IMG/VR virus record: IMGVR_UViG_3300036833_000232
Location: 1 to 64,000 of that record
Length of the DNA stretch: 64,000 bases
Source of the DNA: a virus
Taxonomy: Duplodnaviria > Caudoviricetes
Direction: 5' to 3' (one strand)
The translations under genes and the position numbers were made by a program. The notes beneath the pieces were generated by a model that was given only the letters and a program-made list of their open reading frames with translations, had not been told where the DNA came from and did not search any database. This document shows, piece by piece, positions 22,202-62,718 of this stretch (its first letter is position 1; every line of letters starts with the position of its first letter).

Positions 22202-22651
22202 GTGCTGTCCAAACCCCAACGCGCCAAGGTCGCCGAACGCCGCGCCGAAGCCATCGGACTCCGCCTAGCCGGCATGGACTGGGACACCATCGCCACCCGC
22301 CTCCACTACGCCGACAAAGCCGCTGCCTGCAAAGACGTCTCCCGCGCCCTCGCCGCCCGCCTCGAAGAGGAAGGCCGCGCGGTTGAGGAGTACCGCGAGG
22401 TCGAGTTGATGCGCCTGGACCGTCTCCAAGCCGCAGCGTGGCCCGCCGCACTCGCCGGAGACGTCCGCTCCATCGAAGCCGTCCTACGCCTCATGATCGG
22501 CCGCTGGAAACTCCTCGGCCTGGAAGCACCTGTGCGGGCGGAGGTGCTGACCATCGATGCCATCAACGCCGAAATCCAGTCCCTCAGCGGACAGGTCGGC
22601 GGCGGAGATCCGGTTGGAGAGGTTGCAGGCCCTCCGGCGATTGAAGCTTGA
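22202..22651 (+). CDS. HTH protein, probable terminase small subunit
   Basis: LRLAGMDWDTIATRLHY HTH; directly upstream of TerL. Confidence 0.6.
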   Translation: MLSKPQRAKVAERRAEAIGLRLAGMDWDTIATRLHYADKAAACKDVSRALAARLEEEGRAVEEYREVELMRLDRLQAAAWPAALAGDVRSIEAVLRLMIGRWKLLGLEAPVRAEVLTIDAINAEIQSLSGQVGGGDPVGEVAGPPAIEA

Positions 22652-24143
22652 GGCTGAACAACGTGAGCGGGAACGGCTGGCCCGGCTGGACGTGTTCGGG
22701 CTGTTGCACTACGAGCCGACCCCAAAGCAGGCCGTGTTCCACGCCGCCACCGAGTTTGACGTCCTGTTCGGTGGAGCTGCTGGCGGCGGAAAAAGTCGTG
22801 CCCTTGTCATGCATGCGATCCGGGAATGCGTCCGCTACCCCGGTGTCCGGGCCGCGGCGTTCCGGCGCACGTATGGCGAGCTCAAAGATTCCCTGCTGGC
22901 CGAGTTGGCGCAGGTCGGGTTCGCGTCGGCGGTCGGGGCCCGGTGGAACGGCACCGACTACGACCTGCGGTTCCCCAACGGCTCCATCCTGCAATTCCGG
23001 TACGCCGAAACGATCCCCGACGCGTCCCGCCGACTGGGTGCCCAATACCAACTGCTGCTGTTCGACGAACGCACCCAGACGAACCCTGATGTGCTGCTGT
23101 TCCTGGAGTCCCGGCTGCGGTCCGGGCGCCGGGATGTGCCGGTGCTGGGGATCCGGTCGGCGACCAACCCCGGCGGCCCGGGCCACAGCATGGTCAAGTC
23201 GCGGTACATCAAACCGACCGCGTACGGCGAGCGGGTGGTGCGCGATGAGCGTGGCCGCACCGTCCGGTTCATTCCGTCCCGACTGTCGGACAACCCGCAC
23301 ATCAACCCCGAGTACGCCCACGACTTGCAGGTGCTGCCGGAGCAGATGCGCGCCGCCTACTTGGATGGCAACTGGGATGTGTTCGCGGGGATGATGTTCC
23401 CGGAGTGGTCGCACGACCGGCATGTTGTTGCCCCGTTCACGCTGCCTGCGGAGTGGCGGCGGTACAACGGCATCGACTGGGGTTACAGCGCGCCGTGGGT
23501 GGTTTTGTGGGCTGCGGTCGACGAGGACGGCCGGGTCTACGTCTACCGGGAGATCTCGGAGCGGGGTGTCGGCGAGGCCGAGCAGGCTGGCCGCATCCTC
23601 GCCGCTGAGGCTGCCGGGGAACAGGTGGTGGCCCGGTACGCGGATGACGCGATGTGGGCGACCCGCGGGGACGCGAAGCCGATCGCGCAGGTCTACGCGG
23701 ACAACGGTTGCCATCTCACCCCCGCCGGTAAGGGTGGTCGGGTCGCCGGGTGGCAGCGCATGCATTCCTACCTCGCGGAGGCGCCGGCGTGTCCGCATCA
23801 CCGCGCGCAGGGGTGGAAGTCGTGCCCGAAGCTGCATGTGTTCTCCACCTGTGAGCAGTTCGTTACGACGGTGCCGGATTTGCCGCATGCCACTACGGGG
23901 GATCCGGAGGACGCGGATACCCGCGCGGACGACCATTGTGCTGATGCGGCTAGGTATTTCATGATCAACCTTGGTACGGGTCCCGAGTTCACGATCTTCG
24001 ACGAACCGGAGGAACGTCCCCTGCACCAACCTGCCCCCGGGATGATCGTGGTCCCGCGTGATCACAACACCCCCCGGCGCCAGGCCGATGTCGACGAGGA
24101 CGGGCCGCGGCCGGGCGCCGTCACCATCTCCCCGTTCGCCTAG
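22557..24143 (+). CDS. terminase large subunit
   Basis: Walker A GGAAGGGKS, Walker B LLFDE, ATNPGG, GIDWG, DDHCADAARY. Confidence 0.95.
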   Translation: MPSTPKSSPSADRSAAEIRLERLQALRRLKLEAEQRERERLARLDVFGLLHYEPTPKQAVFHAATEFDVLFGGAAGGGKSRALVMHAIRECVRYPGVRAAAFRRTYGELKDSLLAELAQVGFASAVGARWNGTDYDLRFPNGSILQFRYAETIPDASRRLGAQYQLLLFDERTQTNPDVLLFLESRLRSGRRDVPVLGIRSATNPGGPGHSMVKSRYIKPTAYGERVVRDERGRTVRFIPSRLSDNPHINPEYAHDLQVLPEQMRAAYLDGNWDVFAGMMFPEWSHDRHVVAPFTLPAEWRRYNGIDWGYSAPWVVLWAAVDEDGRVYVYREISERGVGEAEQAGRILAAEAAGEQVVARYADDAMWATRGDAKPIAQVYADNGCHLTPAGKGGRVAGWQRMHSYLAEAPACPHHRAQGWKSCPKLHVFSTCEQFVTTVPDLPHATTGDPEDADTRADDHCADAARYFMINLGTGPEFTIFDEPEERPLHQPAPGMIVVPRDHNTPRRQADVDEDGPRPGAVTISPFA

Positions 24144-24511
24144 CCAGGTGGCGAGTCGACGAGTTGCCGGGTCCGACATGGCCAGTCCCGGCCGCACTCC
24201 ACGCAGACACCGTTGTCGGATTGGGTGTGAAGATCCCGCACCGCCCGGGCAAGGTGGTCGTAGTCGCGCGGCTCGTTCGGCCGCCGCGGACGAACGAAAA
24301 TGCCCGCGCCTTGGCGCCTGACCACCGTGCCATCGGCATGGAGTAGGTCCAGCGCGCGGCGCACGGTTTCGCGGGCGACCTGGAACCGGTCGCACAGCGC
24401 GCTAGCAGAGGGCAGCCGGTCGCCCGGTTGGTAGGTGCCATCCCGGATGCGGTCACGGAGCCACGCTGCGATTTGCAGATAGGCCGGCCGCGGGTCATCG
24501 AGATCCACCAT
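24140..24511 (-). CDS. GntR-family wHTH regulator
   Basis: YLQIAAWLRDRI...PGDRLPS...VARETVRRAL...RQGAGIFV. Confidence 0.88.
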   Translation of the reverse strand: MVDLDDPRPAYLQIAAWLRDRIRDGTYQPGDRLPSASALCDRFQVARETVRRALDLLHADGTVVRRQGAGIFVRPRRPNEPRDYDHLARAVRDLHTQSDNGVCVECGRDWPCRTRQLVDSPPG

Positions 24512-24577
24512 GGCGGCGAGCGTAAACGGCCCCTACTGACTGACGTCGCACCGTGCGGGTTTGTCCGGGGGTGACAT

Positions 24578-26197
24578 GTGGGTGCGTTCACCGAGGCGGC
24601 CGTCGGATGGTTGCTGAACCGGCCCCGCACCGGCGTGGTCGAGGCAGCGGACCGGGCGCTCGCCCCGGCGGTCCCCGAACGCGCCGGCTTCGAGTACGGG
24701 ATTCCCCGCGGCGGGTTGACCGAATGGAACGCGGGGGTCGGGGCCTCCACCCAGACTGACCGGCGCAGCCAGATGCAGGAGTTGTACGAGGCGTTCCTGG
24801 GCTGCCCGTGGTCGTGGGCGTGTGTGAACGCGATCGCCCGCACCATCACCGCCGGTGGCCTGGTCACCGACTGGGACGCCGATGACGGCGAAGGTGACCA
24901 GGACCAGCCGGCGAAACCGGCGAACGTGCTGGCGTTGGAGAAGCTGCTGACGTTCACCAACCCCCGCGAAGACATCCGCCAACTGTTGCGGTCCACAATC
25001 GCGGATTTGTTGGTGTTCGGGGACGCCTACATTGAGGTCACGTACGTTGGGTCGATCCCGGTCGCCCTGTACACGCTGGATTCGCCGTCAACGACGCCGA
25101 TCGCGGATGAGCACGGCACGATCACCGGGTATGTGCAGGTCACCGACTACGGGCAGCGCGCCACGTTCGAACCCCGCGAGGTCATCCACATTTCGCTGGA
25201 CGCACCCCGGTCGGGGGTGTTCGGGGTGTCGCCGACGCAGGCCGCGATCCTGCCGATCATGTCGTGGCTGTTCACCGCCGCGACCTTGAAAGAGACGTTC
25301 AGGAAGGGCAACCCCGCGAACATCTGGGCGGACATGCCAGCCGGAATGTCCTCCACGGAGCAGGCCCGGTGGATCGCCCAGTACCACACGAACAACCTCG
25401 GGCCCCGCAACATCGGCACACCGATCGTCACCAAAGGTGGCGCGCACATCCAGGAGTTGCAGGCCGGGAAAATCGCCGAGTATTTGCAGACGCTGGACCA
25501 GAAACGCGACGAGATCCTCGCCTCCTACGGTGTGCCACCAGCGCAGGCCACCGTCATCGAATCCGGCAACATCGGCTCCGGCACCGGCGAATCACAACGC
25601 AAAATGTTCCAAGTCAACACCTGCCAACCGATCGCCGAACTGCTGCTGGAGAAACTCAACTACGCGATCGTCAAACTCGGGTTCGCGATCGACGGGTGGC
25701 GCCTGAAATTCCGCGAGATCGACATGCGGGACTCGGCGGTGATCGAGCAGATCCGGGACATGCGGCTGCGGAACGGCTCGTGGGTGTTGAACAAGTACCG
25801 CACAGAGATCGGTGAGCCGCCGGTGCCCGGTGGGGACGACGCCATCCTGGTGGACCGCCAGAACCTGGTGTTGTGGCAGGACATGGCGTCCTACTCCACC
25901 AGCGGGATCGCCGCGAAGTTGAAGGGCACCGCGCTGGAACCGGCCGAGCCGGGAGCGCCGGGGACACCGGTCGGCCTAGAGAAACCCGAACCGGCCCCGG
26001 TGCCGGCCGCGTTGGCACCGTTCGCTGGGCAGGGCAACCCCGCCGGCACCGAGCAGGAACTCGACGGGGAAGATGGAGAAGAGGAAACCGTCGGGGCGGG
26101 TGTTGGGGTGTTGAGTGAGGCGTGGCAGCACGCCTACCGGGAACGCCTCGCGGTGGCGTTGCGGGAGCTACCCGGTGTGGATACCAACGCTGCATGA
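24578..26197 (+). CDS. portal protein (HK97-like)
   Basis: ACVNAIARTI, LLVFGDAYIE, EVIH, GVSP, EILASYGVPP. Confidence 0.92.
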   Translation: MGAFTEAAVGWLLNRPRTGVVEAADRALAPAVPERAGFEYGIPRGGLTEWNAGVGASTQTDRRSQMQELYEAFLGCPWSWACVNAIARTITAGGLVTDWDADDGEGDQDQPAKPANVLALEKLLTFTNPREDIRQLLRSTIADLLVFGDAYIEVTYVGSIPVALYTLDSPSTTPIADEHGTITGYVQVTDYGQRATFEPREVIHISLDAPRSGVFGVSPTQAAILPIMSWLFTAATLKETFRKGNPANIWADMPAGMSSTEQARWIAQYHTNNLGPRNIGTPIVTKGGAHIQELQAGKIAEYLQTLDQKRDEILASYGVPPAQATVIESGNIGSGTGESQRKMFQVNTCQPIAELLLEKLNYAIVKLGFAIDGWRLKFREIDMRDSAVIEQIRDMRLRNGSWVLNKYRTEIGEPPVPGGDDAILVDRQNLVLWQDMASYSTSGIAAKLKGTALEPAEPGAPGTPVGLEKPEPAPVPAALAPFAGQGNPAGTEQELDGEDGEEETVGAGVGVLSEAWQHAYRERLAVALRELPGVDTNAA

Positions 26198-26945: not shown

Positions 26946-27989
26946 GTGGCCGTGCAGGTCGATTTCGCGGTCCGGGCCCGTGCCGCGTTCGCCGCCGGGT
27001 GGGCCGGCACCGGTGGCCCGCTGACCCCCCGAGTTGCGGCGGCGTGCCGTGCCGCAGTCGCTCTCGCCGCCGAGCACCCGAACCATCCGGGGGTGCTGGA
27101 GGCGACCCTGCTGATCGGGTCGATGGAGGGCACGTGGGCCCGGGTGTATGCCCGCCGCGAGGCGCTCTACACCACCCACATCGACGCGATCACCACCGCG
27201 TGGCGGGCGTGGATCACCACCCACCTGGATGTTCCCGCCGTAGTGGGTGCCTACCGGCGCAAGGTCGGTGCACCCGTTGAGGCCGCGTCAGACGCTGAGC
27301 AGCGCCGCCGGGAACGGGAAGTCGCCGCGATCGCCCTACTGCTGTTGCTGCTGCACGGGATGCTCGCCGACGGGCACCGCGACGCAGACCCCACCTATGT
27401 GGCACTGATCGGCACCATCGAGGTGGCGCTACGGGAAGGCACCGCGGAAGGCACCGCCGGGGCGGTCGCGCTGCTCGCCCAGCAGGCCGGGCACACCGCC
27501 GCCGTCGACTTCGACAAGGCCTACACCGACGCGCTCGCCGCCGCGGCCGGTGAGGACCAGTACGCGGCGCTCGCACTGGCCTGGCTGAAACGGATGGTCG
27601 CATCGGTCGCCGCCGCCGCCGGCCGGGCACTGGCCGCCGCAGACGAGCCCCCCGATGCCACCACCGACGATGAGGCCGAGGCGGTCACCGACACAACCAG
27701 CGGCGAGAAGAACCACGCGGTCCCCGGGTTCGCGGACTGGTTGCTGGGCGCGGCGTTCTGGCTGGGTGGCCTCGCGGTATACGCCGCACTGAACATTGCG
27801 GCAGTCAACTGGGTCACTGTCGGGGACACCCGGGTCTGTGCGGCGTGCGCCGCGAACGAGGACAACAGCCCCTACCCGCTGATCAGCGCACCGAGCCCTC
27901 CCCAACATCCGCGGTGTCGGTGTTGGACGGTCCCCGCCGGCCCGGTCGCGTCCCTCGGTCAATTCGCCACCTACCTGATCGGGGGCTGA
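26946..27989 (+). CDS. minor head protein (Mu gpF/SPP1 gp7-like)
   Basis: WVTVGDTRVCAAC...PPQHPRCRC. Confidence 0.85.
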   Translation: MAVQVDFAVRARAAFAAGWAGTGGPLTPRVAAACRAAVALAAEHPNHPGVLEATLLIGSMEGTWARVYARREALYTTHIDAITTAWRAWITTHLDVPAVVGAYRRKVGAPVEAASDAEQRRREREVAAIALLLLLLHGMLADGHRDADPTYVALIGTIEVALREGTAEGTAGAVALLAQQAGHTAAVDFDKAYTDALAAAAGEDQYAALALAWLKRMVASVAAAAGRALAAADEPPDATTDDEAEAVTDTTSGEKNHAVPGFADWLLGAAFWLGGLAVYAALNIAAVNWVTVGDTRVCAACAANEDNSPYPLISAPSPPQHPRCRCWTVPAGPVASLGQFATYLIGG

Positions 27990-28640: not shown

Positions 28641-30545
28641 GTGGCACCTCGTATCGCCACTGTTGGCGGCTACGCCCTCCGGCCCGGCGTCAGCCGAAAC
28701 GGGCGCCTGTACACCCGGGAGGCCATCGCGAAGGCGGTGGCCCGGGCACAGGACCGGATCGCCGCAGGCACCATGAACGTGGTCCGGCCGAGTGACGTAC
28801 TCAGCCAGCGCACGCATCACGCCGCCGAAGATGATTCCACGCGGATCGTGGGCCGGGTCACTGCCATGTCGTTGGCCGAGGACGGGTCGGCCCGGTTCGC
28901 CGCGGATATCGCGGACACCCCGCACGGCCGCACCATTGCTGATCTGGCGGCACCGAGGACGGCGGGTGACCCGAATTCGGTGGACCCGTTCTTGACTGGT
29001 GTGTCCATCCGGGGGGCATGGCTGGGTGAGGTGCGGCGGATCCAGCACGACGGGGTGATGACAGAGACTTCGGATGATCTTGAAATCGACGGCATCGACT
29101 ACACCGGCCACCCGGGCGTACCAGGCGCGGAGATAGACACCTACACTCCCGCAGCTTCCACTCGAACCTCCCACGAATCGACCGCCGGCCGAGTGCTGAT
29201 CTTCGAGGCCGCGCAGGAGGTCGCAGTGACCACTCCGGTCGAGGAAAAAGGCGCTCCGGCGCTCAAGTCCGGGAAACCGGCGGCGGCACCAACGAAAGCC
29301 TCCGCCTACGCCGACCCGGGATACCAGGACGACAAGGCGCCCCGGTACGCGTTGGACACGAAGGCCCAGGCCAAATCCGCCTGGAGTTACATCCACATGC
29401 CGAAAAACGCGAAACTGTACAGCCCGGCACAGTTGAAGCGGATCAAGGGGCGCATCGCGAAAGCGCTCACCAAGTCCGGGGTGAAAGTCGATCCGGCGGA
29501 GCACTGGCTGATCGACCCGGTCATGCAGGTCACCGAATCCGGGATCGACGAGTACTACCCGGATGCATCCACCGCCGGCTCGTTCTCGATTTCGCTGTCC
29601 AACGGCCCCGTCAACATCACTATCAGCAGTTACCAGGTCGACCCCGCGGATTTGGACCTGGTGGGGCGCGCGGCGATGGCTGGCGCGTGCAAGGCGCTGG
29701 CCACGATCGACCCGGACATGGACGGCGACATGGACGTGCCAGGTGCGGACGCGGAGGACACCGACAACGATATGGAAACCGGGCCGGTGGTGGTGCACAC
29801 CGAAACCCGTGGCCGGCAGTACGAACTGGACCCCCCGAATGACGGCGGTGTGACGGAGGAATCCCCGCCGCCCGATGCACCCACAGACCCTGGAAGCACC
29901 ACCCCGAATGGGGCTTCCGCCGTTTCCGATCCACCGGCGCCGGTACCGGCTGCCGACCCAACACCCGAGGAGGAGCCGGCGATGGCCGACGACACCACCC
30001 CGGCGGTCGAGCCGCAGGCCCCCGCCACCCCCGCCACCGAACCGGCTGCTGTGCCGCCGGTGGCCGCCCCGACTGCGGTGACGCTGTCTGACGCCCAGTT
30101 CCAGCAGTTGCTGGCCGCCGCCACCCGAGTCCCCGAATTGGCGACGGTCGGGGCCCCGGCTGAAACCGCGCCCGCGGCGACCACCCAGGAAACCGCCCCG
30201 CCCACCGTGCAGGTCAGTGCGGCACCCCCGGCTACCTCGAATCCGGCGGTGACCGAAACGCAGGAGCAGATGATCGCCCGCCTCGTCGCGGAAGGCGTCA
30301 AGGAACAACTCCCGCTGGCGGTGCAGAACCACGTCCAGGCCACCGGTCTTCCCGGTCGGCGTGGTCTCGTGGCCCGGGTCGGTGAAACCTCCGCCGCCCC
30401 GGCCGCGACCACCGACGGGCTCAACGCCTACGGGGTCCCGGCGGACTGGCCGGACAAGCCCCTGGACAAATACACCTCCGAGGAACGCAAGCGGTTCTTC
30501 GGTCCGGCGGTGCGCGCGCATTACCTCGGCGACCGCGACAGCTAG
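28641..30545 (+). CDS. prohead protease/scaffold fusion with DUF6582-like insert
   Basis: SRNGRLY, THH, GVSIRG, IDYTGHPGV; YADPGYQDDK...AWSYI; acidic/Pro-rich C-terminus. Confidence 0.8.
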   Translation: MAPRIATVGGYALRPGVSRNGRLYTREAIAKAVARAQDRIAAGTMNVVRPSDVLSQRTHHAAEDDSTRIVGRVTAMSLAEDGSARFAADIADTPHGRTIADLAAPRTAGDPNSVDPFLTGVSIRGAWLGEVRRIQHDGVMTETSDDLEIDGIDYTGHPGVPGAEIDTYTPAASTRTSHESTAGRVLIFEAAQEVAVTTPVEEKGAPALKSGKPAAAPTKASAYADPGYQDDKAPRYALDTKAQAKSAWSYIHMPKNAKLYSPAQLKRIKGRIAKALTKSGVKVDPAEHWLIDPVMQVTESGIDEYYPDASTAGSFSISLSNGPVNITISSYQVDPADLDLVGRAAMAGACKALATIDPDMDGDMDVPGADAEDTDNDMETGPVVVHTETRGRQYELDPPNDGGVTEESPPPDAPTDPGSTTPNGASAVSDPPAPVPAADPTPEEEPAMADDTTPAVEPQAPATPATEPAAVPPVAAPTAVTLSDAQFQQLLAAATRVPELATVGAPAETAPAATTQETAPPTVQVSAAPPATSNPAVTETQEQMIARLVAEGVKEQLPLAVQNHVQATGLPGRRGLVARVGETSAAPAATTDGLNAYGVPADWPDKPLDKYTSEERKRFFGPAVRAHYLGDRDS

Positions 30546-46124: not shown

Positions 46125-46138
46125 AAAGGGGGTCCGGT

Positions 46139-47204: not shown

Positions 47205-47217
47205 CCGGGAGGCGGGC

Positions 47218-53072: not shown

Positions 53073-53075
53073 GCC

Positions 53076-55151
53076 TCATGCCGCCCCCACCCGGGTGGGG
53101 ATCGACTCCCACTTCCCGTGCCCGCAGTCGCGGACCTCCTCATTGCCGGCCGCACGACGCAGCGCCTGTGACACCACGGACAGCTCGAATCCCAGGGCGG
53201 CGGCCAGTTCCCCGGTGGTGGACCGTCCCCGCCGGGCCAGCTCCGTCACGATCGCGGCCTTCTTCGTGACCGAGGCGTCTTCGGGCTCTTCGACCGCGAT
53301 CGTCAGCGGCAGCGGCACCAGTTCCGCGACCCGATCGGTCAAATCCGCCCACGGGTTGGCCGCCCGGGCCAGTACAGCCGCAGGGGTGCCGCTGGGCAGG
53401 CCGAGGCGTCGGGTCTGCTTGTAGGTCTCCAACGCGATCCGGGCGTCGGCCATCGACTGCTCCGGGCTGCGGTGCGCCTCGGCGATGTAGGCACCCAGCG
53501 CCAGCTCACCGACCTCGTCATCACCCCACGGCTCGTTCGGCAGCGCCCGCGCCCACGGCGACATGTCCTGCGTGAAATCGGTGCGCAGCATCGCGGCCCG
53601 GTTGCTGCCAGCCGCCCGCAAATACGCCCAGCCGCCGTCGGTGGGCAACGTGTAGGGTGCCATCGTCGGACCGTTGATCAGATTGTGGGCGTATTTCGAG
53701 CTGGTGTAGAAACACACCACATTGCGGGACGTCAGAATATCTCGCAGGGTGGAATTACCGGCGAAATCCAGATTCAAATCCAGGCCCTGGGTGGCACACC
53801 ACACCGCCACGCCTTTTTTCCGGCCGAGTCGGACGACAATTTCCAGTTCTTTCGCGAAGTCTTGGTCGGCCTTCAACAGTAGGTGCAGTTCGTCAATGAT
53901 CCACAGGAGGCCTTTGCGGGCGGGGGAGGGGTTGACTCCGCGCACGTCCTCCGGCAGTGCGGCGTTCTCGATACCGCGGCCGGTCATGTACTCCTTGACC
54001 GCTGCCAGCTGCGCCCAGGCCCCCGTCAGGCCGTAGTCGGAGGCGGTCATGTAGTTGCTCAGGATCGGGGAGGAGTCGTTGTCGATGGAGCCGTCGTTGT
54101 AGAGCACCTTCCACCGGCGGCTGTGCAGCGCGGACATGCCCAGGTTCTCCAGGAACACGGACTTGCCGGAGCCGGGGTCGCCGGTCACCAACCCGTTGAT
54201 GACGGTGGCGACGTGGTCGGTCAGTTGCACCGACCCCCAGCCATCGCCATCGGCGTAGGGGCCGGACGCGACGTAGCCGTTGTCGTAGCGGGGCCCGGTG
54301 TAGGCCACCCCGTCTTTGAGGGGGTTGGTGGTCAGAAACGAGATCAGTCCGCGGGAGTAGTCGCCGTCGGGGTGCAGTTCGATCACGATGTCGGCGGGGG
54401 CCAGGCCCATCACGCCAGCGATTTTGGGACGGGCGGGGACCAGGTCATCGAAGGTGTTGTGGTCAGGGTCGAGAACGATCTCGAACGCCCACCCAGTCGC
54501 GAGTTCCCGCTCACCCGCGAGTATCGAGTGGGCGAATTTTTTGCCCTTCGCGGACAAGAATGTTTCCCAGCGTTCCACAATCCGGTCGGCGCCAGTGATC
54601 GGCGCGGCCAGCACCTCGTCCTCAGTGTCTTCATCCTCGTCCGCGGCGGGCAGTTGCGACGGAACCGGGCCGGCGACGATGCGGTGGTCCTGCCACCAGC
54701 GGCCAGCGAGGGTGACGGTGGTGCCGGCGAGCGCGCCGGTAAGCAGCCAGCCGGGGGTGGTACCGGTGTCGAGGACCGCAGCGAGGGTGGACCAGAGGGT
54801 GGCGGTGGTGCCGGCGAGCCAGAACCGCAGACTCCACCGGTGGGTGAACACCGTGCGCAATGCCCCGTAGCGGGTGAGGTACATCGCGCCGGTGGCCAGG
54901 GCGGCGGTGGAGGCACCGACCGCGAGGGGCTGGTGCGCGGCCATTTCGATCAGGTGAGCGCATTCGCCGTAGGCCCAGGTGCCCGCGCCGGCGAGGTGGG
55001 GGGCGACCATGGCGCGCTGCCAGCGGGACACGCGGAACGCTCGGTCGGCGGCCGCGTACTGCGCGAGCGCGTCTTCGTGGGAGACCGGCACGACTTCAGC
55101 ACCAACAGGCGTGGTGGTTTCCTGTGGTGGTGCGATGGCTTCGGTGCCCAC
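53076..55151 (-). CDS. traB: TraB-like FtsK/SpoIIIE DNA translocase
   Basis: N-terminal TM helices, Walker A GDPGSGKS, Walker B WIIDELH, RLGRKKGV...ATQ, C-terminal wHTH. Confidence 0.82.
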   Translation of the reverse strand: MGTEAIAPPQETTTPVGAEVVPVSHEDALAQYAAADRAFRVSRWQRAMVAPHLAGAGTWAYGECAHLIEMAAHQPLAVGASTAALATGAMYLTRYGALRTVFTHRWSLRFWLAGTTATLWSTLAAVLDTGTTPGWLLTGALAGTTVTLAGRWWQDHRIVAGPVPSQLPAADEDEDTEDEVLAAPITGADRIVERWETFLSAKGKKFAHSILAGERELATGWAFEIVLDPDHNTFDDLVPARPKIAGVMGLAPADIVIELHPDGDYSRGLISFLTTNPLKDGVAYTGPRYDNGYVASGPYADGDGWGSVQLTDHVATVINGLVTGDPGSGKSVFLENLGMSALHSRRWKVLYNDGSIDNDSSPILSNYMTASDYGLTGAWAQLAAVKEYMTGRGIENAALPEDVRGVNPSPARKGLLWIIDELHLLLKADQDFAKELEIVVRLGRKKGVAVWCATQGLDLNLDFAGNSTLRDILTSRNVVCFYTSSKYAHNLINGPTMAPYTLPTDGGWAYLRAAGSNRAAMLRTDFTQDMSPWARALPNEPWGDDEVGELALGAYIAEAHRSPEQSMADARIALETYKQTRRLGLPSGTPAAVLARAANPWADLTDRVAELVPLPLTIAVEEPEDASVTKKAAIVTELARRGRSTTGELAAALGFELSVVSQALRRAAGNEEVRDCGHGKWESIPTRVGAA

Positions 55152-55240: not shown

Positions 55241-55555
55241 TCAGCCCAGGTAGTTGTTGTTGGTGCCCGCGCCGGAGGCCTTGACGTGCTCCTGCGCGGC
55301 CTGGTGCGCCTCGTAGTGGGCTTTCATCTGCTCGGCCAGGCCCTTGGCCGCGGAGAGGTGGTTGAGTATTTCCGTGGTGGTAGAGACCTGGGACTGGTCG
55401 ATGTTCGCGCCGGCGGTCCCGACCGAAGCGATGTTCGCCTGGACGCGGGACTCGGCAGCGGCGAACACCTCGATCAGGCCGCTGGTGAACGTGATCCCGC
55501 GCTCGGGGTTGGTGACCTCGCCGCTGGCCAGGGTGAGGCTGCCGGAATCGGCCAT
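55241..55555 (-). CDS. small helical protein upstream of traB
   Basis: GAAGGAG RBS; 104 aa. Confidence 0.65.
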   Translation of the reverse strand: MADSGSLTLASGEVTNPERGITFTSGLIEVFAAAESRVQANIASVGTAGANIDQSQVSTTTEILNHLSAAKGLAEQMKAHYEAHQAAQEHVKASGAGTNNNYLG

Positions 55556-55624
55556 GGTGTGTGCTCCTTCGGGTGGGTTGCGCACGCCGCCTCCATGGTT
55601 GGGGGCGGACAACTTGGGGGTGGG

Positions 55625-56203
55625 TTATTCGGTGGTGGTGATCTCGATCGGGGCGGCCTCGATTGCCTTCGGCTGATCCGCGCGGATCGCCGGCACCCGG
55701 ATCAGCGGCCGGGCGGGGGCTGCGGTCTCGGTGTCGACCCGCAGGCTGTCGTTGTCGGTGGTGACGACGCGGGGGCGGCTGGCGAACCGGCGGGCGGCCC
55801 GCGAGACGATCTGGTGCCGCTTGTGGGCCCACCACTGGCGGGCGTTGCGCCACGCGAGCCGCCACACACCGGGGGTGCGGCCGCGGCGGACGTCGTCGTC
55901 TTCCCGCTCGATGCGGACCTCGTCCGCGCGGGTGGCGCGGCGGCCGGCGTTGGCGACCCATTCGGCGATGCGGCGCTGTAACGCCTGCCGGATCATGCCG
56001 CCCTGGGCGCGTTGCTCCCGCAGCGCGGCGTGGCGGGCCATCCACTTCTCATGGCCGTGCCGCATCCGCTGCATGCGTTCCTCGTGCCGGTTGTTCGACC
56101 GGTGCGGGGTGTTGCCGCGGGCGGAGGCGACACCGTCGATGCCGTCGGAGACGAGAAAACCGATCGTCAGGCACAGCAGGAAAACGAACGTGAACGGGTC
56201 CAC
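55625..56203 (-). CDS. membrane-anchored basic protein (transfer module)
   Basis: N-terminal TM, Arg-rich. Confidence 0.65.
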   Translation of the reverse strand: MDPFTFVFLLCLTIGFLVSDGIDGVASARGNTPHRSNNRHEERMQRMRHGHEKWMARHAALREQRAQGGMIRQALQRRIAEWVANAGRRATRADEVRIEREDDDVRRGRTPGVWRLAWRNARQWWAHKRHQIVSRAARRFASRPRVVTTDNDSLRVDTETAAPARPLIRVPAIRADQPKAIEAAPIEITTTE

Positions 56204-56206
56204 GGC

Positions 56207-56617
56207 TTAGGCTCCGATGAGGCTGAACAGCGGCGGGAACAGTCCGAGCGCGGCGGGCGCGAGGAACGCGACCCACGGGGTGTAGCGGCGGATCCCGCTG
56301 CCCCACTTCGGCGCCATATGGAAGATCGTGATGGCCACGAGTGCCAGGCCGATGCACCACGGCAGCGCGGTGGTCGCCGCGTGCGCCCCGGTGAGCAGCC
56401 AGCCGGGGCCGTGGGCGTGGGTGGCCAGGTCGGTGAGTTTGGCCAGGCCGTAGTGCAGGGCCTGGGCGATCAGGGCGGCGAACCCGATACCGGCCAGCAG
56501 CATCAGGAACGCGTGCACCCATTCCCAGTTCACGCGCTGGATGTTCGGATGGTGCTTGAGCACCACCCAGGCCAGTACCGCGAACACCAGCCCGGTGGCG
56601 GCGGATCCCCAGATCAT
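56207..56617 (-). CDS. four-TM membrane protein (Spd-like)
   Basis: hydrophobic throughout; CACAGAAAGGA RBS. Confidence 0.7.
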   Translation of the reverse strand: MIWGSAATGLVFAVLAWVVLKHHPNIQRVNWEWVHAFLMLLAGIGFAALIAQALHYGLAKLTDLATHAHGPGWLLTGAHAATTALPWCIGLALVAITIFHMAPKWGSGIRRYTPWVAFLAPAALGLFPPLFSLIGA

Positions 56618-56642
56618 GATGGTTCCTTTCTGTGAGTGTCGA

Positions 56643-57215
56643 TCACCAGGCGGTGATGTTGAGGAGAGTTGGAATCAGGCCGCCCAGGACGGGGACCTGT
56701 GCGATACCGGTGCCGATCAGCAGCGCGGCGGCGGTGACGGTGCACAGCCGGGTGAACCGCTGCGTCACCCATTTGGTGGTGTCGCCGACCACGGCGAACG
56801 CAGTGACGACCGCGGCCCACCCGGTCGCGGCGTAGCGCTGGACCGGGTGTGCCGAGATGCCCCACTCGGAGGTGCGGATCCGCGCCCACAACTCACCCGG
56901 GGTGCGGGGATGGTTGATGGCCTGCCCAAGCCCAACGGTGGGGCAGGCCACCCATTTTGCGGTGTCGACCGCGACACTGATGGTGATCGCCCCGACCGCC
57001 CACAGGCACGCGAAGACCCGTTTCGGTCCGCCGGTCGCGGTGGTCCATTCGCCGCGGCGGGCGTGATCCCAGATCTCGGCGGGAGTGTGCGGCACGGTGA
57101 CCGCCTCAGGCAGGGTGATCGCGTCGACCGCTTCGTGGGCCAGCGTCACCAGGAGGGATCCCCGTGGCTGCTCGCCCTGCCTGGTCGGGGGAGCGTCGTT
57201 GTCGGTGGTGGTCAC
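56643..57215 (-). CDS. membrane protein with internal duplication
   Basis: two P-x-E-(I/L)W...EW...DT(A/T)KWV repeats. Confidence 0.65.
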   Translation of the reverse strand: MTTTDNDAPPTRQGEQPRGSLLVTLAHEAVDAITLPEAVTVPHTPAEIWDHARRGEWTTATGGPKRVFACLWAVGAITISVAVDTAKWVACPTVGLGQAINHPRTPGELWARIRTSEWGISAHPVQRYAATGWAAVVTAFAVVGDTTKWVTQRFTRLCTVTAAALLIGTGIAQVPVLGGLIPTLLNITAW

Positions 57216-57484
57216 CGGGTTTCCTTCCGTTTCGTGCCGGACAACAGGGCGTCGGCCTCGGCGCGCAGCGTCTTGGCCAGGTCCCGGATGGCGTGGTTGA
57301 GGCGCGAACTGTCGCCGCGGTGGCGGCGAACCGCGCCGCGGAAGTAGTCGTAGGCGGCACCCAGTTCGTCCAGGGCGGTTTTCGCGCCGCGGGTTTCGGT
57401 GACAAGTTGTTTACGGCGGTTGACCGCCCGGGCCGCGATCTGCCGGGCCGGGGCTTTACCGCGGGAGCGGGGTTGTCCGGCCAT
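57212..57484 (-). CDS. hypothetical protein
   Basis: coupled on both sides. Confidence 0.65.
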   Translation of the reverse strand: MAGQPRSRGKAPARQIAARAVNRRKQLVTETRGAKTALDELGAAYDYFRGAVRRHRGDSSRLNHAIRDLAKTLRAEADALLSGTKRKETR

Positions 57485-58716
57485 CAGCCGACCCCCTTCG
57501 CCTGGCCACGGTCCTGCTGGCGCGGGTCGCCGAAGTCGCGGAAGTAGCGGCTGATCGCGTTCTTCGCGGTGCCGGTGTAGCTGCCGGACATGGCCACGTC
57601 GACCGCCCGGTACGACAGGGGGTTGTCGGGGTTGGCCTGGTAGCTGGCGAGCCAGCGGGCGACCGCTTCGGCGGACTTCTCGCCGTACTTACGGACCAGA
57701 GTCAAATCCAGCACGGGCCGGGGAGTGCCCTCCAGGTTGATTTCCGCTGTCTGCTCCGAGGCGCGCGCCGCCGCGGCGGCCGGAGCGGCCGCGGGTGGGG
57801 TGGCCAGCGGGGCGGGGGCCGGCTTCGGTTTCGCCGTCGGGGCCACCACTTTGGCCTGTTTGGTGGCCACCGCGTACGGCGAGGGCTGCCGGATCGACGC
57901 CAGATCCTGGGCGTGCTGGATGACGCCGATGTGGTTGACCAGCCGGATCATCAGCGTGTCGTCGTCGGCGACACCCGCTTTGATCACCGCGCGTTCCAGG
58001 CGGGACTGCCGGAACGGGGTCCGTTTGCTGGCGGTGGCCAGCCGGGCGGCCTGCATCAGCGCCCGGTCCCGGGTGCGGGCGGCCGCGTCGCGGGCATCGT
58101 CGGCCAGGCCGATCCGCGACAGTGCCCGCTCGCGCATCTCGTCCGCGACCCGCGCCCAGGTGGACTTTTTCTTGCTGCGGCCGTGCCGGTTGTGGATTTC
58201 GATACCGAGGGCCTGGTGCAACATGACCATCGCGAACACCGGCCCAGCCAGGACCCGGGCGAGGCCTTCGACCGGGCCGGCCTCGACCAGGGCGGCGTAG
58301 GCGGCGAACCCGCACAGCGCCCACGCGATCATCCGGGCCGTGCCGGGGGAGGCCGGCTCACCTTCCGGGGTCTTGCGCCGGACGTTGGTGCGCATCCCGT
58401 AGGCGCACGCCAGCAGTCCGACCTCGATCAGCGCGAACATGCCGACCCGTTCGATGCCGACGATGTGCAGCTTGTCCCCGAAAAACCGGAACGAGGTGTC
58501 GGCCGACAGGGCGATCCCGAGTGCCCCGGAGAAGTAGTAGCCGAGGTTGGCGCGGGAGGCGCGTTGTTCGTCGGTGACCGGGGCGGTGTGCCGCCCGGCC
58601 CGGGTCCTTTTCGCGGCGAGCACCATCAGCAGGACCGCCACCGCTGCTGCGATGCTCAGCAGTAGAACACGGTGGGCGACGACCCAGCCGAGCACGAGCG
58701 TCGTCACGCTGGTCAT
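57484..58716 (-). CDS. SpdB/DUF2637-like multi-TM spread protein
   Basis: about 5 TM segments, RVLAGPVFA, Pro/Ala linker, C-terminal HTH-like region; AGGAGG RBS. Confidence 0.65.
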   Translation of the reverse strand: MTSVTTLVLGWVVAHRVLLLSIAAAVAVLLMVLAAKRTRAGRHTAPVTDEQRASRANLGYYFSGALGIALSADTSFRFFGDKLHIVGIERVGMFALIEVGLLACAYGMRTNVRRKTPEGEPASPGTARMIAWALCGFAAYAALVEAGPVEGLARVLAGPVFAMVMLHQALGIEIHNRHGRSKKKSTWARVADEMRERALSRIGLADDARDAAARTRDRALMQAARLATASKRTPFRQSRLERAVIKAGVADDDTLMIRLVNHIGVIQHAQDLASIRQPSPYAVATKQAKVVAPTAKPKPAPAPLATPPAAAPAAAAARASEQTAEINLEGTPRPVLDLTLVRKYGEKSAEAVARWLASYQANPDNPLSYRAVDVAMSGSYTGTAKNAISRYFRDFGDPRQQDRGQAKGVG

Positions 58717-58840: not shown

Positions 58841-59233
58841 TCAGTCGTCGGGTTTGTGGGCGATCCCCGACGCGGATCCGACCAGGCTCCCCATCCCGTT
58901 AACGATCTCGGCTGCGGAACGCAGGCAGTGAGAACCGCCGAGCTCGGTGACAGTGCAGTGGACACTGTTGTGGACGATGATCCGGAATTTGATGCCCATC
59001 TTCTGGCCCCGCACGGCGATGTCCTCGGCCGTTTGGATGGCGTGCGGGTAGTCAAAAATCCCCGCCCGGGCATCCACGACCAGCCGGATCAGCTGGCCGT
59101 GCTCGATGGTGTCGAAATAGGGTTTCCTGTCGACTTTGGCCGACGATTCCCGGGACGTCAGTTCGGCGTGGACCTTCTGCAACAGGCCCATCTCGTGCTG
59201 CACGGTGCTGTTCACTTCGGCACTCCGTTTCAC
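58841..59233 (-). CDS. hypothetical protein
   Basis: ORF in leftward operon; start uncertain. Confidence 0.45.
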   Translation of the reverse strand: MKRSAEVNSTVQHEMGLLQKVHAELTSRESSAKVDRKPYFDTIEHGQLIRLVVDARAGIFDYPHAIQTAEDIAVRGQKMGIKFRIIVHNSVHCTVTELGGSHCLRSAAEIVNGMGSLVGSASGIAHKPDD

Positions 59234-59249
59234 GTAGTGGAGAACTGGA

Positions 59250-59813
59250 TCAACGAGCCCAGCGCTTCGAGGCGTCCCGATCCCGGCGTTCCTCGTCCCG
59301 GTCGTCGGCCCAGTCGATGACGGTGCGGTAGAACTCCGCAGCCGGTCCTCCGAGCGCCCACGGAACGAAGATCAGCAAAGCGAAGACGCCGAGCAACGCC
59401 GGCGGCCAGACAAAGACCAACCAGACCCAGGTCCCGAACATGACCGGTGTCCCCACGAGCACGCCATAGAGCAACTTCCGCCTAGTGCTCACCCGCGGTG
59501 GGGGTGGCAACACCACCGGTGGCGCGGCTGGCCACCGGGTTTCCAGCGCCGGCGCCGAGGTCGGCGATTGCAGGGCAACAGGCACGTCACCCGAGTTCGG
59601 CTTGCTGGTGGACTTCATGTGCCCGCATCCTCTTTCCGTGTCTTTTTCACCAAACGGCGTTCCCGTTCGGACATTCCTCCCCAGATGCCAAAGCGCTCGT
59701 CGTGCGCGAGCGCGTATTCCAGGCACTCGGAAGAACTCCTCGTACTCGGCGTCGTCCATATCCTCGCCGGTCATTCCCGCGGCGGAGGAGGGGGCGCTGA
59801 ACTGGTCGCGCAT
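59250..59813 (-). CDS. membrane protein
   Basis: two C-terminal TMs; TGATG coupling. Confidence 0.55.
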   Translation of the reverse strand: MRDQFSAPSSAAGMTGEDMDDAEYEEFFRVPGIRARARRALWHLGRNVRTGTPFGEKDTERGCGHMKSTSKPNSGDVPVALQSPTSAPALETRWPAAPPVVLPPPPRVSTRRKLLYGVLVGTPVMFGTWVWLVFVWPPALLGVFALLIFVPWALGGPAAEFYRTVIDWADDRDEERRDRDASKRWAR

Positions 59814-60118
59814 CACATCCCCCCGGTGAGTTGGTGGTAGACGTAGTTGACGATCACTTCGGCGGAGTGGGAGCAGTCGATGAGGATCCCGGACTCCTGG
59901 ATTCGGCGGGCGACGGTGCCGAGCAGGTCGTGGGCGGCGATGGCGGTGTTGACGTGGTCGATGAGGTCGGCGGGGACCGGGTCGGCGAGGTTGAACACCC
60001 GCCCGATACGGTCGATCAACTCGTCCTGGCGGGGGATCGGCTGGGGCGGGTAGCTGGCGTAGAGGTGGGCCGGCATGTCGCCGCCGGGGCCGACACCGTG
60101 GGGGGTTGTCACAGCCAT
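59813..60118 (-). CDS. hypothetical protein
   Basis: GAAGGGG RBS. Confidence 0.6.
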   Translation of the reverse strand: MAVTTPHGVGPGGDMPAHLYASYPPQPIPRQDELIDRIGRVFNLADPVPADLIDHVNTAIAAHDLLGTVARRIQESGILIDCSHSAEVIVNYVYHQLTGGM

Positions 60119-60330
60119 GCCACCCCTTCCGGGGTGAACCGGTCACGGAAAGTGGACGTCGGCGACTGGCCGGCACCGGTGCATGCCGGTCGTTCGGTGG
60201 CGTAACCAACCGTCGGGCCGGGGGCGACGGGGTGCGCGGGGATACGGCCGTCGGTGACGGGGTAGTCGCCGGCGCAGTCGGGGCAGACGCCGCGGAGGCG
60301 GTCGTCCGCGAGGAGGGTTCCGGTGGCCAT
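60109..60330 (-). CDS. small Zn-ribbon protein
   Basis: CPDC...H...CTGAG. Confidence 0.6.
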   Translation of the reverse strand: MATGTLLADDRLRGVCPDCAGDYPVTDGRIPAHPVAPGPTVGYATERPACTGAGQSPTSTFRDRFTPEGVAWL

Positions 60331-60575
60331 CACACCCACCCCTTGTCGGCGAGGTGCCAGCGCCCGGCGGGGGTGATCTCGCCCGTGGCGGTGACCAACG
60401 CATCCTGCTTGAGTTCGCGGTCCACGATCTGGCCGTTGCGGGCGAACAAGTCCGGGTTGTAGGTGCCCTCTGCGGCGTCGGCCAGGTGTTCCAGGTGCAA
60501 CGCGGTCAGGTAACGGCCGGACAGGGTCGAGTAGCCGAATTCGGGGTGCCTACTGGGCTGTGGGTTGGTGGCCAT
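60330..60575 (-). CDS. small wHTH-like protein, paralog 3
   Basis: FGYSTLSG...ITPAGRWHLADKGWV. Confidence 0.65.
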   Translation of the reverse strand: MATNPQPSRHPEFGYSTLSGRYLTALHLEHLADAAEGTYNPDLFARNGQIVDRELKQDALVTATGEITPAGRWHLADKGWV

Positions 60576-60835
60576 CACGGGCACCATCCCGCCATCGTCA
60601 GGGCTTCCCGGCCGAGGTCGGTGATCTGCCAGTTACTGTCCAGTAGCCCGTCGCGCTGCAAGGCGTCCATCAGGGCGCGGTCGGCGGGGTCGGTGGTGGT
60701 GTAGGCGCGGCGGGTGAGGTCGGTGATCAGGTTCGCCTCGTCCACCACGTCCAGGTGCTCATCGGTCAGGACCAGGCCACCGGGGGCGAAGACGTAGGCG
60801 ACACCGTTGATCGTTTCGCAGTGCAACTCGCCCAT
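60575..60835 (-). CDS. small wHTH-like protein, paralog 2
   Basis: LQRDGLL...ITDLGREALTMAGW. Confidence 0.6.
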   Translation of the reverse strand: MGELHCETINGVAYVFAPGGLVLTDEHLDVVDEANLITDLTRRAYTTTDPADRALMDALQRDGLLDSNWQITDLGREALTMAGWCP

Positions 60836-61119
60836 CAGATCCACCCCCGATCGGACAGGTGCCACAGGCCGTCGCTCGTGATCACGTACTGGTCGGTGTC
60901 TGCGATACGGACCAGCAGGCCAGCGGAGGCGCATTCCTCGGCTGCGACAGTGTCGAACTCGTCGGTGAAGTCCACCTGGTAGGTGTCGTTCACGGACCGG
61001 GCTGCCTGATGCAATCGAGTCAGGTGATGCACGGCCAGGTAGAACCCCGCGAGAGTGGGGTAGCCGAACTGGTGGTCTCGGATCGAGGTCTTGGTGATAT
61101 AGGCCGGAGTAGTGATCAT
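60835..61119 (-). CDS. small wHTH-like protein, paralog 1
   Basis: FGYPTLAG...ITSDGLWHLSDRGWI. Confidence 0.65.
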   Translation of the reverse strand: MITTPAYITKTSIRDHQFGYPTLAGFYLAVHHLTRLHQAARSVNDTYQVDFTDEFDTVAAEECASAGLLVRIADTDQYVITSDGLWHLSDRGWI

Positions 61120-61511
61120 CACGCCACCTCCCGGCTCTCGCCAGTGGCGGGTTCCCACTGCTGAACGCGGGCCACTAGCAGCGCGGCGTACACACCGCGG
61201 CCGACGGCGAGGATCTCGGTGGCGGCTTTGTCCGCGTCAGCCGCCGGGACGTGCCGCAGCATCGCGCGGATCGAGTCGAACACCGCCCGCACCGTTTCGG
61301 CGGGGGATTCGGCGGCGGCGACCCGCACATCGAGCGCGGCGAACCGGCGGATCAACTGCCGCACCGACCGTGGCTGGACCGGTTCGGTCGCGGCGGCGGC
61401 GAGCGCGTCACACAGGTCCGGGTCCGGTTGGGTGGGGTCGAGTTGCTGGTACAGGTCGTGGATGGCGGCGGCCTGTACCAGGGTGGTGGGTTTCTCGGTG
61501 CGGACGTCCAT
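61119..61511 (-). CDS. hypothetical protein
   Basis: TGATG coupling. Confidence 0.6.
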   Translation of the reverse strand: MDVRTEKPTTLVQAAAIHDLYQQLDPTQPDPDLCDALAAAATEPVQPRSVRQLIRRFAALDVRVAAAESPAETVRAVFDSIRAMLRHVPAADADKAATEILAVGRGVYAALLVARVQQWEPATGESREVA

Positions 61512-61744
61512 CACGCGGCACTCCAGACGCCCTGTGTGTAGTCGGTGGTGTTCGGGTCGGTGACCGGGAAGTGGAGGGTCGTCACGGTCACCGACCCGAA
61601 GTTGTTGAGGCGCGATGCGAACCGGGCGCGTTCCCGGTTCAGCCGGTCGGCGGTACCTCGCCGGCCCTTGTACTGCCGGGCGCGCATCTCGGCCTGGGCC
61701 AGACGCTGCTCGGGGGTGAGGGCCTGGCGGCGGCGGTTTCGCAT
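61511..61744 (-). CDS. first gene of leftward operon, basic protein
   Basis: two tandem start-associated motifs upstream. Confidence 0.65.
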   Translation of the reverse strand: MRNRRRQALTPEQRLAQAEMRARQYKGRRGTADRLNRERARFASRLNNFGSVTVTTLHFPVTDPNTTDYTQGVWSAA

Positions 61745-61792
61745 CGCGCCTCTCCCTTTCTGTGGCGGGGGTGTTCCTTTTGTGGTGGGGTC

Positions 61793-61869
61793 TTTGGTAT
61801 GGAGCTTGTTGACTTGGTACGTACCATAGACCGGGATGGCAGAGTACGCAACCTTTGGTACGGTCCAAA
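61793..61869. promoter_or_regulatory. divergent promoter region with GntR-type operators
   Basis: TGGTACGTACCA palindrome 61815-61826; TTTGGTACGGTCCAAA 61854-61869; TTTGGTA half-site at 61793. Confidence 0.6.
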
Positions 61870-61896
61870 CCACAGCAGTCAAGCGAAGGGAGACAC

Positions 61897-62718
61897 GTGG
61901 CGGCCACTGCGCGATGGCAGGTCGTATATGACCACCTGCTCACCGGCATTGATCAGGGCGAATACCCGCCTGATCACCAACTGCCGACCGAACGAGAACT
62001 CATGCGCCAATTCGGCTACGCACGCGACACCGTTCGACGCGCCTACGCCCAGTTGGAGCAGAAAGGCCTCGTCGTCGTTGGTGGCCCCACCGGTCGACGG
62101 GTACGCCAACCGGTCGAGTTGTACTTCGACGCGTCCAAATTCGAACGGATCTACACCGACGACCCCGACCTCAACCGCGATCAGTGGAGCCAGGACGTCG
62201 CCGCGCAGGGCTGGGAGCACGACCAGACCCCAGTGGTGAACCACCTGCCCGCCACGCGGTGCGTTGCCCGCTGGCTGGACGTTGACCTGAAAACGCCGCT
62301 CATCCGACGCCGACGGCTCCGGCGCGTCCGACAGACACCAGCACAACCATGGAAGACGGTCGTTATCGCCGACTCCTGGTTTCCGCTGGACATTGCCCAC
62401 CGCCAGGTCGACGGGTTGGCACCACTGCTGATGCAGCAGAACATCACGATGCGTGGCGGCATCATCCGCTCGCTGGGGATCCGCCAGGAGATGTTCGTGG
62501 ACGAGATCCGGGCCAGGATGCCGCACGACGACGAGACCGAACTGCTGGACTTGCTGCCGTACACCCCGGTTCTGGAGTTCGCGCGAGTGGGAATCGACGA
62601 TGCCGGCCGACGCATCCGGGTGATCGTCAACGTGTTGTCTTCCGACTCCCAGTACCTGAAATACATCCTTGACGTGCCCCAACCGCAGGAACCCTCACCC
62701 GCCACGGAGGACATGTGA
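61897..62718 (+). CDS. GntR/HutC-type regulator with UTRA domain (KorSA/TraR-like)
   Basis: LPTERELMRQFGYARDTVRRAY; DSWFP, DEIRARMP; GAAGGGAG RBS. Confidence 0.9.
   Translation: MAATARWQVVYDHLLTGIDQGEYPPDHQLPTERELMRQFGYARDTVRRAYAQLEQKGLVVVGGPTGRRVRQPVELYFDASKFERIYTDDPDLNRDQWSQDVAAQGWEHDQTPVVNHLPATRCVARWLDVDLKTPLIRRRRLRRVRQTPAQPWKTVVIADSWFPLDIAHRQVDGLAPLLMQQNITMRGGIIRSLGIRQEMFVDEIRARMPHDDETELLDLLPYTPVLEFARVGIDDAGRRIRVIVNVLSSDSQYLKYILDVPQPQEPSPATEDM

Follow-up and report, generated by a model that had tools for sequence, protein, structure and literature searches.

The 64-kb window analysed here is the first part of a 98,661-bp record in IMG/VR (IMGVR_UViG_3300036833_000232), classed as a virus record, in which a siphophage head-tail operon adjoins an operon resembling the TraB-type conjugation loci of Streptomyces plasmids. 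We propose that the element is a circular temperate siphophage with an actinomycete-type conjugation module for double-stranded DNA placed between its tail genes and its early/replication genes, and that it would be transferred by contact as well as in virions, a reading which we consider fairly probable from gene content, a structural model and analogy with characterised systems. That a single element carries both the virion and the TraB-type transfer module is well supported by comparison with its relatives. The combination itself has been known since 2010 from the Streptomyces plasmid pZL12, and by sequence the element described here is a separate, unrelated second lineage which has reached, or kept, the same combination.

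A review states that no phage-plasmid is conjugative (PMC12282955), and the proposed reading, if true, runs against that statement. As a rule, transfer by phage and transfer by conjugative plasmid are regarded as mutually exclusive strategies, with pZL12 as the one reported exception. Since the present lineage has no relationship to pZL12, transfer by two routes would, if true, be a recurrent and selected strategy in mycelial actinomycetes, and finding the combination again in a second, unrelated lineage, maintained through deep divergence, would show that it did not arise by chance. Such a finding would also bear on the trade-off of capsid size limits, host range and transfer cost in mycelial bacteria. 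Large surveys detect conjugation through relaxases and type IV secretion systems; TraB-type systems work without both and would therefore be missed by them.

Two operons on one self-closing replicon

The last ~197 bases of the record repeat the first ones with one mismatch, and the record thus circularises at ~98.46 kb or carries terminal redundancy. Composition is uniform, with a G+C content of 63-70% along the whole window, and no host-chromosome-like genes were seen on the replicon. Genes were called by third-position G+C (GC3), since the raw list of open reading frames (ORFs) of a genome with 66% G+C is mostly noise. Scans of viral and genome contigs identified one viral contig and two Saccharopolyspora contigs as close relatives. 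The viral contig G002, from IMG/VR, is 102,915 bp long (102,922 bp in an independent ENA assembly), and 64 of 148 predicted proteins are common to it and the window genome, in the same circular order and at 35-88% identity; these include the terminase, portal, capsid and tail genes, the ATPase of the transfer module (51%), the SLT protein, four membrane proteins and DnaB. The plasmid pAmyja1 (NZ_CP008954.1), a closed 92.5-kb circle of Amycolatopsis japonica DSM 44213, was the sole portal match among 72,556 plasmids and, of the cultured relatives, stands nearest to the phage part. Its terminase, portal, capsid, tail tube, tape measure and fibre genes are collinear with those of the window at 40-69% identity, and it also has in common with the window a ParB/PAPS-reductase pair, a tyrosine recombinase and a GntR gene with a PP2C-like neighbour.

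A first, sequence-only reading of this DNA had proposed a complete head-tail operon, and Pfam, PHROGs and the comparison with relatives agree in placing a siphophage operon at 22.5-48.5 kb (22557-48479), with all of its genes on the plus strand. The terminase large subunit (22557-24143), with Terminase_6N and Terminase_6C matches which both lie just under the Pfam cut-offs, is 69% identical to a "terminase family protein" of pAmyja1 and 64% identical to its G002 counterpart, while the portal (24578-26197; PF04860, 2.7e-28) shows 68% identity to pAmyja1 and 74% to G002. The head genes further comprise a MuF-like minor head protein (26946-27989), matched weakly by PF04233 and at 1e-5 to 1e-6 by head-morphogenesis families of PHROG, a protein resembling a scaffold or protease, a head-tail adaptor and a major capsid protein of the SU10 type (30361-32043; PF17236, 1.9e-7). 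This last protein is 77% identical to that of G002 from residue 81 on, and the true start of its gene probably lies ~240 nt downstream of the called one. The tail tube protein (34554-35723) takes its name from the annotation of its pAmyja1 homologue ("phage tail tube protein", 52% identity; 74% to G002). The tape measure gene (37069-40332; PF10145, 3.1e-23) and the distal tail and operon-end genes (40365-48479) complete the operon; the latter have homologues in pAmyja1 and G002 and include a 931-aa fibre-like protein and a BNR/sialidase-like domain protein at 41685-42686 (BNR_2, 3.5e-20). The replicon thereby holds a complete virion module, from terminase, portal, capsid and adaptor to tube, tape measure and distal tail, together with a candidate lysin.

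A single gene separates the virion operon from the transfer module. It encodes a DNA-binding protein with a helix-turn-helix (HTH) motif (48652-49515, plus strand; HTH_23 and MerR matches, phrog_597) and is syntenic in G002, which keeps the whole run of tail-end genes, HTH gene, SLT gene, ATPase gene, membrane-protein genes and GNAT/PP2C genes. The absence of an integrase, att-like repeat or host gene between the modules, on which the sequence-only reading had relied, held up: no exact direct repeat of at least 16 bp brackets either module, no integrase or tRNA gene lies between or around them, and the tyrosine recombinase of the replicon is encoded at 4494-5546, away from the junction.

Two such operons might also have been joined in assembly, as a chimera, or by the recent insertion of a prophage into a conjugative plasmid, and it may be said for such an origin from two separate elements that the contig is of metagenome type, that a tyrosine recombinase is present and that the transfer module occurs on plasmids without detected phage genes. 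We nevertheless regard it as exceedingly improbable. The same junction and gene order are found in G002, which was assembled by two pipelines, and a joint kept while the proteins diverged by ~50% is no chimera and no recent insertion; in addition no att repeats flank the modules, the composition is uniform, and the ATPase sequence was found on two contigs of ~98.7 kb. The proposal of one element is thus carried by the self-closing record, by the conserved junction and by the closed-plasmid relative of the phage part, and terL and the traB-like gene were found together in synteny elsewhere, namely in G002. One argument formerly offered for unity was dropped: the start-associated motif said to occur on both sides is mostly a G-rich Shine-Dalgarno sequence, that is a ribosome-binding site, which reads GGGGGTG in the virion operon and takes the CACAGAAAGG variant, CACAGAAAGG(G/A)AG, in some early genes.

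The leftward operon and its FtsK-fold ATPase

The transfer module is a ~12-kb operon on the minus strand, running from 61744 down to 49651, and, as had been noted from the sequence, a GntR/UTRA gene lies opposite to it (61855-62718, plus strand), separated by an intergenic region of ~110 bp (61745-61854). The GntR protein is of the HutC subfamily, with a winged HTH and a UTRA domain (3.8e-9) and full-length NCBIfam GntR matches; a regulator of this type divergent from a transfer operon occupies the Kor/TraR position, by analogy with which it is a putative repressor. From its promoter-proximal end the operon consists of small genes known from GC3 calls (58841-61744), a polytopic membrane protein of 410 aa (57484-58716), four small genes (55241-57215), the ATPase gene (53076-55151), an SLT lytic transglycosylase gene (51643-52254) and, at the distal end, a WhiB regulator gene (49882-50241; PF02467, 5.6e-13) already seen in the first reading. 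The four small genes are also present in G002. Neither they nor the proximal ones gave family matches, and most genes of the operon were left unnamed by Pfam, PHROGs and NCBIfam.

The ATPase has a Walker A motif GDPGSGKS and a Walker B motif IIDE. Its Pfam FtsK_SpoIIIE match (PF01580) is confined to the Walker A region and scores 19.7 bits against a cut-off of 24; fragments of HerA_C, EccC, TraC and STAND-NTPase families are matched weakly, and a search of PDB sequences returned marginal HerA and EccC matches only. The nearest clusters in the Atlas are actinomycete proteins that combine FtsK_SpoIIIE with a MarR/IclR-type HTH. An AlphaFold model built with 17 homologues (mean predicted local distance difference test score 66, 80-95 in the ATPase core) consists of four N-terminal helices (residues 25-156), the ATPase core and a C-terminal winged helix of three helices and a beta-hairpin (residues 624-683), at which position the homologues on Kitasatospora and Pseudonocardia plasmids match HTH_24, MarR_2 and HTH_5. 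When the model was searched with Foldseek, FtsK motor domains ranked first (E 1.3e-8), followed by the coupling protein TcpA and then by EccC and EssC. In profile comparisons (hhalign) the ATPase family matched pIJ101 Tra with 75% probability (E 2.5e-5), in an alignment that stays collinear over both Walker motifs and the ATQ motif, and pZL12.71c with 71% probability. The FtsK-type ATPase with a winged HTH that had been read from the sequence is supported by model and fold search, whereas its own transmembrane (TM) helices are less clear: the N-terminal helices are weakly hydrophobic in the window protein (Kyte-Doolittle maximum ~1.1) and clearly TM in most members of the family (1.6-2.0). Fold, the order of domains and of genes, and remote homology support the identification as a TraB-like DNA translocase, and with it the earlier proposal of TraB/Spd conjugation; the family-level matches that would go with it did not appear.

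The weak HerA_C and STAND-NTPase matches could also belong to a prophage defence or superinfection-exclusion system built on an FtsK/HerA-like ATPase, and prophages often carry defence cargo between tail and early genes. This we judge very improbable, because no nuclease or other effector partner was recognised (in family scans; no PADLOC scan was made), two diverged genomes keep the module as backbone, and TM helices, FtsK fold and winged HTH in the company of GntR and membrane proteins make up the architecture of an actinomycete transfer locus.

Five operon proteins have one to four TM helices predicted from hydropathy, in agreement with the several TM proteins first reported and as is the case for Spd membrane proteins. 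They are encoded at 57484-58716, 56643-57215, 56207-56617, 55625-56203 and 59250-59618, so that three of the four small genes between the ATPase and the 410-aa protein are among them; the protein encoded at 59250-59618 has two helices. The 410-aa protein has three predicted TM segments and belongs to a family widespread in Pseudonocardia and Streptomyces, which hhalign relates to pZL12.73c, a protein of the pZL12 tra locus, with a probability of 98.3% (E 1.5e-14). Membership of the SpdA, SpdB or KilB families was not found with Pfam or NCBIfam, and in the Atlas the leads from the 410-aa protein to SpdB_N, HTH_SpdB_C and DUF2637 clusters are below threshold; the protein is possibly SpdB-like. 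The SLT gene, too, stood only in part as first read: the SLT domain is present (PF01464, 7.1e-10), and the 489-aa ORF is spurious, its first 286 residues being a low-complexity read-through produced by the high G+C content. The real gene starts at the ATG at 52254 and encodes a membrane-anchored protein of 203 aa with one TM helix; it comes after the ATPase gene in G002 too. With this start, the 820 bp at 52255-53075 are non-coding.

This gap lies within the region of the octamer repeats. From shuffles, 6.1 +/- 2.6 copies of GGTGGGGA would be expected in the window; there are 15, of which 11 fall within 52062-53101. The octamer repeats noted from the sequence alone were thus confirmed, and they form two arrays of GGTGGGGA(G/A)T octamers, mainly convergent on a core of ~600 bp without a gene. 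The first array begins 12 bp past the stop codon of the ATPase gene and reads on the minus strand, one octamer copy overlaps the 3' end of that gene, and the second array, read on the plus strand, extends over the start of the SLT gene. No Rfam match was obtained in the 820-bp gap. We regard the GGTGGGGA arrays as a candidate clt, the repeats recognised by TraB, to which the C-terminal winged helix would bind.

Repeats are also present near the corresponding genes of the relatives. The 1.2-kb unannotated gap of pAmyja1 at 3612-4790 (segment L007) comes right after a 737-aa ATPase gene, mirroring the 820-bp gap of the window, and contains the densest heptamer cluster of that plasmid (GTCCCCG/CGGGGAC, 12 copies in 500 bp). 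In G002, over 20 copies of CAACCG(C/G), some of them inverted, follow the gene for a 390-aa membrane protein (segment L004 6590-6970), and the 148-aa gene called across these repeats is probably not real. A short-repeat array specific to each relative fits a clt that would be read by a fast-evolving winged helix.

An ATPase with a winged helix and adjacent repeats might instead be a replication-initiation or partition system, that is an initiator with iterons or a centromere. Foldseek also returned Orc1/Cdc6, likewise AAA+ plus winged helix, at E 1e-5, the two convergent arrays around a ~600-bp non-coding core look origin-like, and no Rep or ParA gene was found elsewhere on the replicon. The FtsK and TcpA matches are stronger, however, and cover more of the target (TMt 0.40-0.45 versus 0.28), the relatives have N-terminal TM helices, the alignment to pIJ101 Tra is collinear, and the operon is rich in membrane proteins and has an SLT gene. 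The core, moreover, is not AT-rich (67-68% G+C), and at a distance of 12-20 kb there are genes for DnaB and a DnaC-like loader. On balance we consider a role in replication or partition distinctly unlikely.

Under the conjugative reading, the HutC-type GntR repressor would keep the divergent operon down. Once derepressed, the operon would yield a membrane-bound, hexameric FtsK-fold ATPase analogous to TraB, whose C-terminal winged helix would recognise the GGTGGGGA arrays beside its own gene as clt and which would pump the unprocessed double-stranded replicon into a contacting hypha. The pZL12.73c-like protein and the other small, Spd-like membrane proteins may form the membrane machinery and serve the spread of DNA through the recipient mycelium, while the anchored SLT protein would open the peptidoglycan. 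Virions and contact would then be the two routes open to the element, as has been reported for pZL12. It probably persists as a plasmid, as a phage-plasmid, by analogy with its closed-plasmid relative pAmyja1.

Several results speak against this reading. No protein of the module reaches a curated conjugation-family cut-off in Pfam or NCBIfam, the hhalign probabilities to pIJ101 Tra and pZL12.71c are just 71-75%, and the window ATPase itself has the weakly hydrophobic N-terminus described above. The 410-aa family shows no similarity to pIJ101 SpdB (hhalign, 0.3% probability), and no homologue of the transfer-operon GntR was detected in G002. Among the relatives the arrays vary in both sequence and position, which makes the tie between repeats and ATPase circumstantial, and such relative-specific arrays could be iterons just as well. 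No ParA or Rep gene was recognised on the replicon, whose plasmid state is taken from a relative, and that relative, pAmyja1, is typed as non-mobilizable by MOB-suite, a result of little weight as this tool seeks relaxases.

The same components might also move DNA within the host mycelium only, providing for spread and segregation across cross-walls and into spores with no transfer from strain to strain. They drive intramycelial spread in Streptomyces plasmids, the genes beside that of the ATPase encode membrane proteins and WhiB and, in a related Pseudonocardia plasmid, SsgA, and a low-copy prophage in a multigenomic mycelium faces a segregation problem. In the systems studied, though, TraB carries out primary transfer as well as spread, the equivalent locus of pZL12 was scored as one of conjugal transfer, and the same module sits on ordinary plasmids. 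We hold an exclusively intramycelial function to be unlikely, and prefer transfer between strains by contact.

Comparison with pZL12 and with other carriers

pZL12 was described by Zhong et al. in 2010, in J Bacteriol 192:3747, and the abstract of that paper is said to mention plaques, virions and a traA-traC locus. In the sequence deposited as GQ919031 it is circular, 90,435 bp long and listed as Streptomyces phage ZL12. Later papers refer to it as a plasmid transferred by a principal tra gene along with two neighbouring genes (PMC3583192), as a well-characterised plasmid with genes for phage particles (PMC4487206) and as an extrachromosomally replicating temperate actinophage (PMC7157519). 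Like the window, pZL12 has a long siphophage morphogenesis operon adjoining a locus of GntR, membrane protein and FtsK-like ATPase, in which an operon for proteins of 398 aa (.73c, a membrane protein), 766 aa (.72c) and 725 aa (.71c, FtsK-like) runs divergently from a GntR/UTRA gene (.80). The statement in the sequence-only reading that tailed phages do not normally encode such a module was therefore too strong. The two elements are nonetheless far apart, as no virion, replication or partition gene is recognisably common to them and just a methylase and a weak WhiB match were found. In pZL12 the transfer locus adjoins the virion operon at its packaging end, in the window at its tail end. The ParA and ParB of pZL12 and its 766-aa gene have no recognised counterpart in the window, which for its part adds the SLT gene and the octamer arrays, and the hosts differ, Streptomyces as against probable Pseudonocardiaceae.

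The Streptomyces plasmids and integrative elements of the pIJ101, pSVH1 and pSAM2 type have, like the window, an operon in which the gene for an FtsK-like ATPase with a C-terminal HTH, membrane-associated there and probably so in the window, comes first or further inside and is accompanied by genes for small membrane proteins, and in pIJ101 the GntR gene korA is divergent from tra, spdA, spdB and kilB, as in the layout of the window. Short repeats adjoin the ATPase gene of the window as clt or TRS repeats do in the Streptomyces systems; such repeats beside the ATPase gene were reportedly treated by Vogelmann et al. in EMBO J in 2011. The window departs from this type in having an ATPase far outside the family (below the Pfam cut-off), no SpdA, SpdB or KilB homologue by hhalign or NCBIfam, and an operon of ~12 kb with many extra small genes, WhiB and SLT; its carrier is a 98-kb phage and not a small plasmid or an actinomycete integrative and conjugative element. 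FtsK/SpoIIIE-like ATPases related to pZL12.71c are encoded by the Streptomyces phages Hiyaa, Galactica, Spocter and Keanu and by Thermobifida phage P1312, none of which has a match to the window ATPase or the 410-aa protein (tblastn). These two proteins also had no tblastn match among 50,697 phage records, and neither module was matched by megablast in the phage and plasmid collections.

The nearest named homologues of the ATPase are those of Saccharopolyspora (45-47% identity), followed by Pseudonocardia and Kitasatospora plasmids (27-31%), and the transfer module occurs without detected phage genes on plasmids of the latter two genera and on one Saccharopolyspora contig. On the Pseudonocardia plasmid pBCI2-2 and the Kitasatospora plasmids the ATPase gene lies beside a gene for a hypothetical protein of ~340-400 aa and small genes, with no annotated phage genes nearby; WhiB genes stand beside the ATPase in pBCI2-2, and a GntR gene adjoins the operon in the Kitasatospora plasmid. 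To judge from these carriers, the module is plasmid-borne gear that a phage lineage keeps as part of its backbone. The host of the element is most likely a mycelial high-GC actinomycete of the Pseudonocardiaceae.

A 95-kb contig of Saccharopolyspora griseoalba was considered as a third phage with the module and rejected, because it has no portal or capsid match and no structural family among its large ORFs; it carries the transfer module and DnaB and was counted as a plasmid-like carrier. On this contig a 215-aa fragment of the ATPase (residues 283-455) is encoded just downstream of the full gene (G001:C17 80652-81137). In Saccharopolyspora soli K220 the ATPase homologue is on a 5.7-kb contig (NZ_JALBWV010000141.1) labelled with a coverage of 320, which may be a multicopy element.

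pAmyja1 differs from the window in the very slot of the ATPase. The syntenic position holds a different P-loop ATPase of 737 aa (hhalign E 0.0045, probability 8%) and a membrane protein of 417 aa, which DUF2637 matches weakly. It is a tentative suggestion, for which the chances appear somewhat less than even, that the window element, G002 and pAmyja1 with its swapped ATPase form a lineage of ~92-103-kb Pseudonocardiaceae phage-plasmids which uses both virions and TraB-type conjugation of double-stranded DNA, with the arrays as clt. Such a lineage would be a tractable system, as pAmyja1 is present in a culturable type strain and the octamer arrays and the winged helix constitute a testable pair of DNA and protein.

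Other genes and repeats of the replicon

The XerC/D-type tyrosine recombinase encoded at 4494-5546 on the plus strand (PF00589, 1.4e-17; PF02899, 6.4e-9), of which pAmyja1 carries a weak homologue, may act as an integrase or else resolve plasmid dimers. The sole RNA gene detected by Rfam and a tRNA scan is a tRNA-Met gene at 12006-12084. Besides DnaB and the DnaC-like loader, the replicon encodes a RecT-like protein, a C5 methylase, a second WhiB and a beta-helix protein, and the candidate lysin mentioned above is glycoside-hydrolase-like. PAPS-reductase/DUF3440 and ParB-N-domain genes adjoin the terminase gene at 18908-21962, and they are the best conserved part of the genome with respect to G002, at 87-88% protein identity, above portal or capsid.

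A second UTRA-domain protein is encoded at record positions 68128-68670, 6 kb from the GntR gene, and has a homologue in G002. Finally, a 28-bp exact direct repeat, TGTGGTGGTAACTCCAGTATGACATACG, is present at 190-217 and 9254-9281, with an inverted 17-bp copy at record position 94226. The copies are located ~25-50 bp upstream of gene starts, far from the module junction, and TGTGGTGGTAACTCCAGTATGACATACG is a candidate operator or promoter common to three transcription units.

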